A stretch of 33,255 nucleotides of DNA from a virus (lineage: Duplodnaviria; Heunggongvirae; Uroviricota; Caudoviricetes), in IMG/VR virus record IMGVR_UViG_2667527666_000008, one strand, 5' to 3'. The notes under the pieces were generated by a model. The model searched no databases, had not been told where the DNA came from, and saw nothing but the letters and a program-made list of their open reading frames with translations. Positions 23,245 to 24,051 of the stretch are shown here, piece by piece (positions within the stretch are counted from its first letter, which is position 1; each line of letters opens with the position of its first letter). A program made the position numbers and the translations under genes.

Positions 23245-24051
23245 ATGAAGAAAAAATACGAACTGGTTGTTAAAGGGATAAATAATTACCCGGATAAGAT
23301 TACTGTTACTGTGGCACTGGAAATTGGTGGGTATCCGTTACTGTTGTTGCCAAATGTGGCGATTAGTCTTGACCGTACTGAAGGTGCCACGCTGGAGTTT
23401 TACGAAGCGGAGGCGAAAAAGCAGGCGAAGCAGTTTTTCATGGATGTTGCTACCGGGTTATGTGAAGGGAACGAACCGTTGCAGGAAAAGCGCCCCATCA
23501 TTTTAGAGGCGCAGGATGTGTTGATAACCTACAGAGGAAAACTACCGGGAATAATTACTTGTTCTCTGAAGATGCCGCCGTCAACACTGCGGTCAGAAAA
23601 AGAGGCGTCTTGTCTGCAGTCTGAGTACTCCATTACGGTTAAAAGTGCCGGAGAGGAAGGAAATAAACGTTATTTTATTGCGTCTGCACCTGATAAAGAT
23701 CAGGAATGGGAGTGTAACCGGCCATCCTTTGTTGTATACGGAGATGGCGGGAAAATAACCATCTCAGAAAATGGGAAATTAACACCGCCATCGCACCAGC
23801 ATAGTGAGGCGCTCATTGAATTTGCCATTGATTACCTGAAGAACAATAAAAAGCAGGGGCTGATGAAGTGCATTGGTCGTTGCATGGGATATCTGCAGAT
23901 AGCTGCTGAGATTGAAGCGCTGGCCAGTGGTGCGGACAAGGATGCAGTTGTGCGGGAGGCTCTTCTTCGTGATTTTGATAATCCGCCCTTTAAAAAAGTG
24001 CCGGCTTACTGGTTTCATCCAGGACTGACTTATCTTAAAGGACGTATATAA
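23245..24051 (+). CDS. Hypothetical protein (268 aa) inserted between holin and endolysin
   Basis: GGAGAG ribosome-binding site; AT-rich; no recognisable motif; interrupts the normally contiguous holin-endolysin pair. Confidence 0.6.
   Translation: MKKKYELVVKGINNYPDKITVTVALEIGGYPLLLLPNVAISLDRTEGATLEFYEAEAKKQAKQFFMDVATGLCEGNEPLQEKRPIILEAQDVLITYRGKLPGIITCSLKMPPSTLRSEKEASCLQSEYSITVKSAGEEGNKRYFIASAPDKDQEWECNRPSFVVYGDGGKITISENGKLTPPSHQHSEALIEFAIDYLKNNKKQGLMKCIGRCMGYLQIAAEIEALASGADKDAVVREALLRDFDNPPFKKVPAYWFHPGLTYLKGRI

Follow-up and report, generated by a model that had tools for sequence, protein, structure and literature searches.

The gene and its lysis cassette

This report concerns a 268-codon open reading frame (ORF) in the virus record IMGVR_UViG_2667527666_000008, a stretch of 33,255 nucleotides referred to here as the window, which corresponds to the late region of a lambdoid prophage that lacks stx. 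The ORF (23245..24051, + strand, 268 amino acids plus stop) begins with ATG and, as an earlier note on this DNA had stated, lies between genes for a pinholin and a signal-arrest-release (SAR) endolysin, recognized by PF04971 on its 5′ side and PF00959 on its 3′ side. From the ORF list, the match to phrog_1085 and the RefSeq name of the gene ('YdfR family protein'), it can be assigned with high confidence as a genuine protein-coding accessory gene, the long, two-domain form of the YdfR/DUF1327 family.

The earlier note had found no recognizable motif in the protein, a description that does not survive profile searches. DUF1327 (PF07041) matches residues 1–100 at 146.1 bits (E 3.8e-43, model positions 1–88 of 93), far above the gathering cut-off of 25 bits, and phrog_1085 matches over the full length at 526 bits (E 4.9e-158), its best stretch pairing residues 132–268 with profile positions 160–296 of 296. 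Sub-regions of the protein also match N-only and C-only PHROGs. All of these Pfam and PHROG families are of unknown function and none is annotated as lysis-related, and NCBIfam contains no match for the ORF. BLASTP aligns the N terminus with YdfR of Escherichia coli K-12 (43% identity over 89 amino acids, residues 1–88, E 5e-21), the type gene, which is found in the Qin prophage in the order essQ, a 4-nt gap, ydfR and rrrQ. The closest phage record is orf5 of the Shiga toxin 2 (Stx2)-converting phage 86 (95.5% nucleotide identity), and the product is 92% identical to a 268-amino acid cluster of 584 member sequences. Both the family and the gene order were therefore already known from K-12, the function of the family being uncharacterized; what is new is a conserved C-terminal domain without a Pfam family, a two-domain plan held in common with Salmonella and an optional convergent partner gene.

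The gene upstream encodes a class II holin of the S21 type (S, a pinholin; 23025..23240, +; 71 amino acids; PF04971, E 9e-33; phrog_9876 and phrog_20, 'holin'). It is 79% identical to K-12 EssQ, and another Met at codon 4 (23034) gives the classic dual-start arrangement. Four nucleotides separate its TAA stop codon (23238–23240) from the ATG of the 268-amino acid ORF, a spacing that is repeated in K-12 Qin, in loci L003–L006 and, indeed, behind the pinholin stop at every E. coli locus examined. The ribosome-binding site that the earlier note had attributed to the gene is borne out by a Shine-Dalgarno-like run, GGGGAGAG (23230..23237, +, read from the sequence), which has the core GGAGAG, is contained within the 3′ end of the holin gene and ends 7 nt before the ATG. 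The SAR-type endolysin gene R (24094..24627, +; 177 amino acids; PF00959, E 5.6e-24; phrog_7, 'endolysin') begins 42 nt beyond the end of the ORF. Its product is 89% identical to K-12 RrrQ and has a G/A-rich, SAR-like N terminus, MNTKIKYGLSAAVLALIAAGAPAP, with an E-8-D-5-T motif read from the translation. The cassette is completed by the Rz i-spanin gene (25270..25764, +; PF03245, E 7e-51) and, embedded within it, a 61-amino acid ORF for the Rz1 o-spanin (25490..25675, +) with a lipobox-like LVVSAC.

The G+C content is 0.457 in the ORF, compared with 0.546 in S, 0.551 in R and 0.503 in the window as a whole. The gene is therefore AT-rich relative to its surroundings, as had been noted, although the effect is mild. 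No sigma-70-like promoter was found upstream of the ORF on the + strand and no terminator was found between S and the ORF. Because of its late-operon position and its tight packing behind the pinholin gene, the natural reading is that it belongs to the Q-dependent late operon and is co-transcribed with the lysis genes. This part of the earlier description is well supported, since late-gene orientation and closeness to the holin-lysozyme-Rz cassette are features of every related locus examined.

Several small elements accompany the cassette. A terminator-like hairpin with a T-run occupies the leader just 5′ of the pinholin start (window 22957–22985, +) and is kept in Stx2 phage 86 (L006 3058–3086); Q-modified polymerase presumably reads through it. 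A strong terminator-like hairpin with a 15-bp stem and T-run (24718–24750, +) is located directly 3′ of the endolysin gene. Between the endolysin and Rz genes (24628–25269, +) are three short ORFs (24705–24917, 24898–25170 and 25095–25268, all +) with similar hydrophobic C termini and no match in Pfam; the same gap in strain N32 holds three small hypothetical proteins in RefSeq.

Domain plan, selection and the convergent partner

The protein is made up of an N-terminal DUF1327 core domain (residues 1–76; 23245..23472, +), a variable and probably disordered linker (residues 77–153; 23473..23703, +) and a conserved C-terminal domain (residues 154–268; 23704..24048, +). The first is defined by PF07041 and by a block with predicted local distance difference test scores (pLDDT) of 64–89 in the AlphaFold2 (AF2) model, the linker by AF2, BLAST break-points and the ratio of nonsynonymous to synonymous divergence (dN/dS), and the third by AF2, alignments and dN/dS. 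The full-length AF2 model has a pLDDT of 57 and predicts three β-strands and one long helix for the N-domain, values below 50 for residues 73–154 and a folded C-domain thereafter. Modeled alone from a 33-sequence alignment, the C-domain reaches a pLDDT of 88.5 and a predicted template-modeling score of 0.81, as a three-strand β-meander with a helical bundle. Its characteristic motifs are IGRCMGYLQ(I/V)AAEIE, DNPPFK and W..PG.TYLK. Within these, the G-R of IGRCMG, the L-Q-x-A of LQ(I/V)AAEIE and the P-x-K of PPFK are invariant columns in alignments A3 and A8; the W…P…Y of the C-terminal tail is also invariant, and the G of PG nearly so.

The N-domain is acidic throughout the family, with an isoelectric point of 5.1 in the window protein and a range of 4.65–5.1 overall. 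Hydropathy (maximum Kyte-Doolittle 19-residue mean 1.42) and AF2 models of soluble domains gave no sign of a signal peptide or transmembrane segment in the 268-amino acid protein, which is predicted to be soluble and cytoplasmic and to have no enzyme fold.

Selection was assessed by the Nei-Gojobori method. The C-domain gives dN/dS of 0.15–0.40 in seven comparisons, the N-domain gives pN 0.37 and pS 0.84 (the nonsynonymous and synonymous proportions of differences) against K-12, and linker module B is near neutral (0.6–1.1). The dN/dS values, together with the invariant columns, indicate a real protein with two constrained domains, of which hundreds of intact homologues exist.

BLAST break-points (at residues 120/121 and 152/154) and sequence comparison define five modules in the family: A (residues 1–75, the DUF1327 core), B (76–120, linker), a coiled-coil module (RIEKLE…ELNKK…KKRRDE…) that is absent from the window allele, D (121–153, linker) and E (154–268, the conserved C-domain). 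Known alleles include A only (103–119 amino acids), A+B, A+B+coiled coil+E (287 or 296 amino acids), A+B+coiled coil+D+E (333 amino acids), coiled coil+D+E (213 amino acids), coiled coil+E (185 amino acids) and an A-A tandem, as well as a 305-amino acid form in which A+B+coiled coil is joined to an unrelated C terminus. Compared with the 333-amino acid P0045, the window allele lacks the coiled-coil module, which has dropped out in frame between two '…SEK' repeats. The 268-amino acid allele is nevertheless common and intact, the clusters that contain it numbering 584, 141 and 40 sequences.

Attempts to connect these domains to known folds and families were negative. No Pfam family covers the C-domain, nor did Pfam match the alternative C-terminal modules that are fused to the same N-domain. 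No structural neighbor of the C-domain was found, and when 5.8 billion proteins were searched with a profile of the C-domain alone, the only matches were unannotated proteins of Escherichia, Shigella and Salmonella, none of them fused to a known domain. A sequence profile search of the PDB gave nothing below E 0.1, and the best Foldseek match of the full model to the PDB was at E 0.24. No known lysis accessory protein was matched in the Pfam, PHROG, NCBIfam or Foldseek searches. Two specific candidates were considered and rejected. Similarity of the N-domain to a double-stranded RNA-binding fold was non-significant (E 0.24–0.58, probability at most 0.51), and the domain is acidic. A zinc site formed by C156, H183/H185 and C208/C212 was dropped on finding C156 and C208 unconserved in the alignments.

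At seven loci extending from E. coli to Salmonella, the C-domain-bearing gene is followed directly at its 3′ end by a gene of about 105 codons, in convergent orientation on the other strand, that is missing from the window. All seven copies are on the − strand: L006 4162–4476 (phage 86 orf6), L004 2938–3294, L009 2378–2713, L013 5807–6124, L015 5599–5916, L017 2501–2815 and L018 2501–2815, the last two found by megablast with phage 86 orf6. Five of the seven are included in alignment A4, in which homology is clear (29 invariant columns, 40–68% identity). The partner family matches phrog_1853, has no match in Pfam and is unannotated in Salmonella, where it is often present beside the YdfR-like gene. 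In E. coli it was detected at about 100 places compared with 952 for the C-domain (both lower bounds), and is on that account an optional companion. The site of its absence can be located precisely: alignment with phage 86, L005 and L002 places about 410 extra bases, encoding the partner in related phages, at the junction GATAAATC (24073..24080), and the window and phage 86 differ at 24080/24081 by a clean indel of about 410 nt with a GATAA(A)TC repeat at its edges. The YdfR-like gene and its partner could constitute a functional two-gene module.

Distribution, annotation and genomic setting

The extent of the family was estimated by megablast against 5426 complete E. coli genomes, giving counts that are lower bounds; whether the genes are adjacent was checked at the inspected loci only. 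The pinholin type of the window occurs at at least 8935 places in at least 2450 genomes, the YdfR N-module at at least 4277 places in at least 1765 genomes and the C-terminal domain at at least 952 places in at least 777 genomes, with the whole ORF present at ≥80% coverage in at least 553 genomes. It had been supposed that holin and endolysin genes are normally adjacent and that the ORF is an unusual insertion between them. For this E. coli cassette neither holds: an occupied holin-endolysin slot is ordinary, accompanying about half of the pinholin copies, and the gene is the long form of a widespread family with the same arrangement in K-12 Qin. Among phage records, 369 have the S/R flanks and 98 match the 268-amino acid ORF, from which it follows that the gene is accessory to lysis rather than part of its core, and that the core lysis machinery can do without it.

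The family has a very narrow phylogenetic range: 1.84 billion representatives, scanned exhaustively with HMMER, yielded 70 proteins at E ≤ 1e-3, the named relatives being without exception from Escherichia, Shigella or Salmonella, and the family appears confined to the lambdoid prophages of these three genera. A contig scan by exact peptide pattern recovered only E. coli and S. flexneri, owing to the exactness of the pattern.

Relatives in Salmonella prophages are 31–40% identical to the window protein (32–45% for C-domain relatives) and follow the same plan of an N-domain, a variable middle that often contains a coiled coil, and a C-domain. Their N-domains are homologous to that of DUF1327 (hhalign probability 85%, E 6.5e-6). 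The genes are located between Q and the holin gene, 0–2 genes upstream of a class II holin, and not between holin and lysozyme; the cassette itself consists of a PF04971 or PF16080 holin, a PF00959 lysozyme and Rz. Late-operon orientation and nearness to the lysis cassette are conserved, and the exact slot varies. In Salmonella, the YdfR-like gene is preceded by an ArtA-like (pertussis-toxin-S1-like) gene and a 106-amino acid ORF, or by reverse-strand HicA/HicB genes (L015 3157–4469; L011–L014 at about 3000–4800), the HicA/HicB pair directly following Q. This shows the Q-to-holin stretch to be a general cargo hotspot.

Current annotation conceals much of the family. RefSeq/PGAP often calls intact 268-amino acid genes 336-nt pseudogenes 'missing C-terminus', leaving the C-domain unannotated, and this mislabeling appears to be due to a family model that spans the short form only. 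Uninterrupted translation was found in strain N32 (L002 20001–20807) and in the O104:H4 isolate FDAARGOS_349 (L017 1685–2491), while the copy in AR_0017 is genuinely frameshifted. With no Pfam family and RefSeq truncation, the C-domain is largely invisible at present, and the gene between S and R is not discussed in two comparative-genomics papers on Shiga toxin (Stx) phages (PMC8136144 and PMC12571312). The matter is of some consequence: the family is present in about one in three complete E. coli genomes, beside the lysis genes through which Shiga toxin and phage particles are set free, and O157, the O104:H4 outbreak lineage and many Stx phages are among its carriers.

The gene order of the window is DUF968, RusA, the Q antiterminator (16963..17658), a Ser/Thr kinase and PP2C pair, a truncated methylase, three tRNAs, the NanS-p esterase (21021..22874), S, the 268-amino acid ORF, R and Rz/Rz1. 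The Ser/Thr protein kinase gene (PF00069, E 2e-33) overlaps the PP2C gene by 4 nt, and the pair (17730–19309, +), of low G+C content (0.36–0.41), is directly 3′ of Q. The kinase recalls the Stk exclusion kinase of 933W, here paired with a phosphatase. Two members of the STnc100 small RNA (sRNA) family (20121–20311 and 20589–20798, +; 165 and 136 bits) occur amid several terminator-like hairpins between the Met, Arg and Arg tRNAs (19796–20045) and nanS-p. In Stx phages this interval is the slot of the stx genes, and no stx is present there in the window. Elsewhere, Rfam identified a sok antitoxin RNA of a hok/sok-type module (12664–12839, +), a DicF sRNA (4546–4597, −) and, within reverse-strand ORFs at 9602–10815, an ALIL pseudoknot (10418–10534, −). 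The last is a frameshift signal of the IS3 family, and an insertion sequence element is therefore placed in the early region of the prophage. Also in the early region is a 368-amino acid ORF (13783–14889, +) that combines HTH_3 with an M78/IrrE-like peptidase, as in ImmA/IrrE-type regulators; the 216-amino acid ORF that precedes it (13155–13805) had no match in Pfam.

Possible roles and comparison with known systems

A role involving RNase E is the only candidate that has experimental backing in a homologue. K-12 YdfR was recovered in a two-hybrid screen and gives a bacterial two-hybrid (BACTH) signal with residues 1–597 of RNase E; Rne1-598-FLAG co-purifies with Strep-YdfR, the interaction surface being residues 1–72 of YdfR, and RNA co-purifies with the protein as well (PMC13232886). 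The N terminus of the window protein that is 43% identical to K-12 YdfR spans the region holding this surface. Acidic N-domains fit a basic protein surface better than direct binding of RNA. We tentatively favor, as a possibility and little more than that, a non-enzymatic cytoplasmic adaptor made late in infection, which would hold the catalytic half of RNase E with its N-domain and a second ligand with its C-domain. According to this proposal, the protein would be made from the Q-antiterminated transcript and would act by binding rather than catalysis. As with residues 1–72 of the K-12 homologue, the N-domain would attach to the N-terminal, catalytic half of the RNase E of the host, and this contact may alter the decay of phage late RNAs or host RNAs. 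The C-domain would engage the second ligand, which in some phages may be the product of the convergent 105-amino acid partner gene. That RNase E binding carries over from K-12 YdfR to the 268-amino acid protein, and is its biological role, is suggested with low confidence.

A number of observations weigh against this proposal. Binding to RNase E is known solely for the 103-amino acid K-12 protein, which has 43% identity in the N-domain and is without the linker and C-domain. Overexpression of that protein causes few changes in the transcriptome, and indirect bridging through RNA or protein was not excluded by the authors (PMC13232886). The evidence on the C-domain shows no tie to RNA metabolism, and searches of the PDB gave no structural similarity to phage RNase E modulators or to RapZ. 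Nearness to the lysis cassette across Escherichia and Salmonella suits a lysis-related role equally well. An envelope-integrity phenotype has been cited for ydfR; the main text of PMC3879167 makes no mention of the gene, and we suspect that the phenotype may come from polarity of the Keio cassette on rrrQ, the endolysin gene that follows.

A broader form of the RNase E proposal, which we consider rather unlikely, treats the long YdfR-like proteins as a class of late prophage effectors, not recognized before, in Stx and related prophages. A constant acidic N-domain would sit on the catalytic core of RNase E, exchangeable C-terminal modules would redirect or block RNA decay as infection ends, and the stability of late and lysis mRNA, or pinholin/SAR-endolysin triggering, would thereby be coupled to host RNA metabolism; the convergent 105-amino acid partner would sometimes control the C-terminal modules. 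Should RNase E binding extend to the long form, temperate phages would possess a dedicated late-stage handle on host RNA decay, and the yield of toxin and virions could be affected.

The rival that survives best, though still doubtful, is that of a cytoplasmic regulator of lysis timing: the soluble, acidic protein would bind the basic, cytoplasmic C-terminal tail of the pinholin or the short basic N terminus of the SAR endolysin in the cytoplasm (MNTKIK…) and would tune membrane depolarization or endolysin release, by analogy with T4 RIII, P1 LydB and Mu gp25 releasin. The charges of the acidic N-domain and these basic segments are complementary, the start codon lies 4 nt past the pinholin stop in E. 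coli, and all relatives with enough flanking sequence, even those of 31–40% identity, have a cassette of class II holin, PF00959 lysozyme and Rz within 0–2 genes. There is also a precedent in Mu gp25 for control of SAR endolysin release from the cytoplasm, via basic residues in the cytoplasmic stub of the endolysin (PMC9239132). However, near-identical S and R genes do without the ORF in many phages (the 369 records against 98), and S21-type holins, with their dual start, already supply an antiholin of their own. The Salmonella copies are upstream of the holin, which is sometimes of the PF16080 type, and this argues against a specific, co-evolved contact. Unlike releasin, the window protein has no transmembrane anchor, and no similarity in sequence or fold to annotated lysis regulators was found. 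Overexpression of K-12 YdfR produced no growth or lysis phenotype (PMC13232886). The lysis regulator put forward in the earlier note is thus still conceivable, and weakened by the protein's solubility, its absence beside near-identical S and R, and the upstream position in Salmonella.

An improbable alternative is a moron of benefit to the lysogen, serving as a defense, superinfection-exclusion or host-fitness factor, with hypervariable modules that reflect an arms race and a partner gene that encodes a regulator or antidote. The low G+C content (0.457 against about 0.55 in the flanking lysis genes), the extreme mosaicism, with independently recombining modules and several alternative C termini, the accessory distribution and the conserved convergent gene on the opposite strand would all be in keeping with this, as would the cargo-rich nature of the Q-to-lysis stretch, which also holds the kinase/phosphatase pair, NanS-p, HicAB and ArtAB-like toxins. 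Yet PADLOC-DB returned no family for the 268-amino acid ORF at E up to 1, the gene has neither a sigma-70-like promoter of its own on the + strand nor a terminator separating it from S, and it is always in late-gene orientation and tightly coupled to S. In addition, selection on both domains is purifying and not diversifying, and K-12 ydfR has almost no RNA-seq reads in standard growth and its product is not toxic when overexpressed (PMC13232886). The exclusion factor that had been suggested earlier is accordingly unsupported.

Less probable again is a functionless passenger, a decaying or neutral remnant kept between two selected genes. Truncated, frameshifted and N-only versions are indeed frequent, the window allele has lost its coiled-coil module and the linker evolves almost neutrally, but purifying selection on both domains (dN/dS 0.15–0.40 for the C-domain), a two-domain plan and motifs that Escherichia and Salmonella still share at 31–40% identity, and the intact allele in clusters of 584, 141 and 40 all argue otherwise. 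The least credible suggestion, with very little to commend it, is a cargo protein set free at lysis to act outside the cell, in the manner of the NanS-p esterase encoded upstream and released at lysis; the gene would be expressed together with the lysis genes, but its product, two small domains and a disordered linker, has no signal peptide, transmembrane segment, or enzyme or toxin fold, its family is restricted to three closely related genera and has no homologues among known effectors, and the homologue has a cytoplasmic partner in RNase E (PMC13232886), all of which makes the exported effector of the earlier note unlikely.

Among known systems, the window protein can be set beside K-12 YdfR (b1555, P76160; Qin; DUF1327/PF07041), which has a homologous N-domain, the same slot and the same RefSeq family name. 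The K-12 protein consists of 103 amino acids, an N-domain and a short helix, whereas the window protein has some 190 more, forming the linker and C-domain. Phage 86 orf5 (BAF34037) encodes the same 268-amino acid architecture (92.5% amino acid identity) at the same position between S and R, and differs in having the convergent 104-amino acid orf6 between orf5 and R, which the window lacks. A COG0188/topoisomerase note deposited with orf5 was unsupported by any search here.

P1 LydB is a small accessory regulator of lysis linked to holin and endolysin. T4 RIII (PMC9409239) and Mu gp25 releasin (DUF2730; PMC9239132) are likewise small accessory proteins, encoded with a holin or SAR endolysin or acting on one from within the cytoplasm, and RIII has also been reported to affect RNA metabolism via ribosomal protein S1 and RegB (PMC9409239). 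With RIII, LydB and gp25 the window protein has no similarity in sequence, domain or fold, and the transmembrane anchor of gp25 is absent from it.

RapZ offers a functional likeness as a non-nucleolytic, multi-domain cytoplasmic binder of the catalytic N-terminal domain of RNase E, and YdfR falls in the same BACTH group II (PMC13232886). The two have no similarity in sequence or fold, RapZ being a host protein with a kinase-like fold and GlmZ as its RNA ligand. Phage-encoded, non-essential modulators of the host RNA degradosome are exemplified by T4 Srd and T7 gp0.7. Another phage protein of this kind, gp37/Dip of phiKZ, is also non-essential and acidic and acts on the RNA degradosome by binding alone, but it occupies the RNA-binding segments of the C-terminal scaffold of RNase E rather than the catalytic half (PMC4980113). 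No homology to these modulators was detected. Dip, Srd and gp0.7 are the products of early or middle genes of virulent phages, whereas the YdfR-like gene is a late gene of temperate ones.

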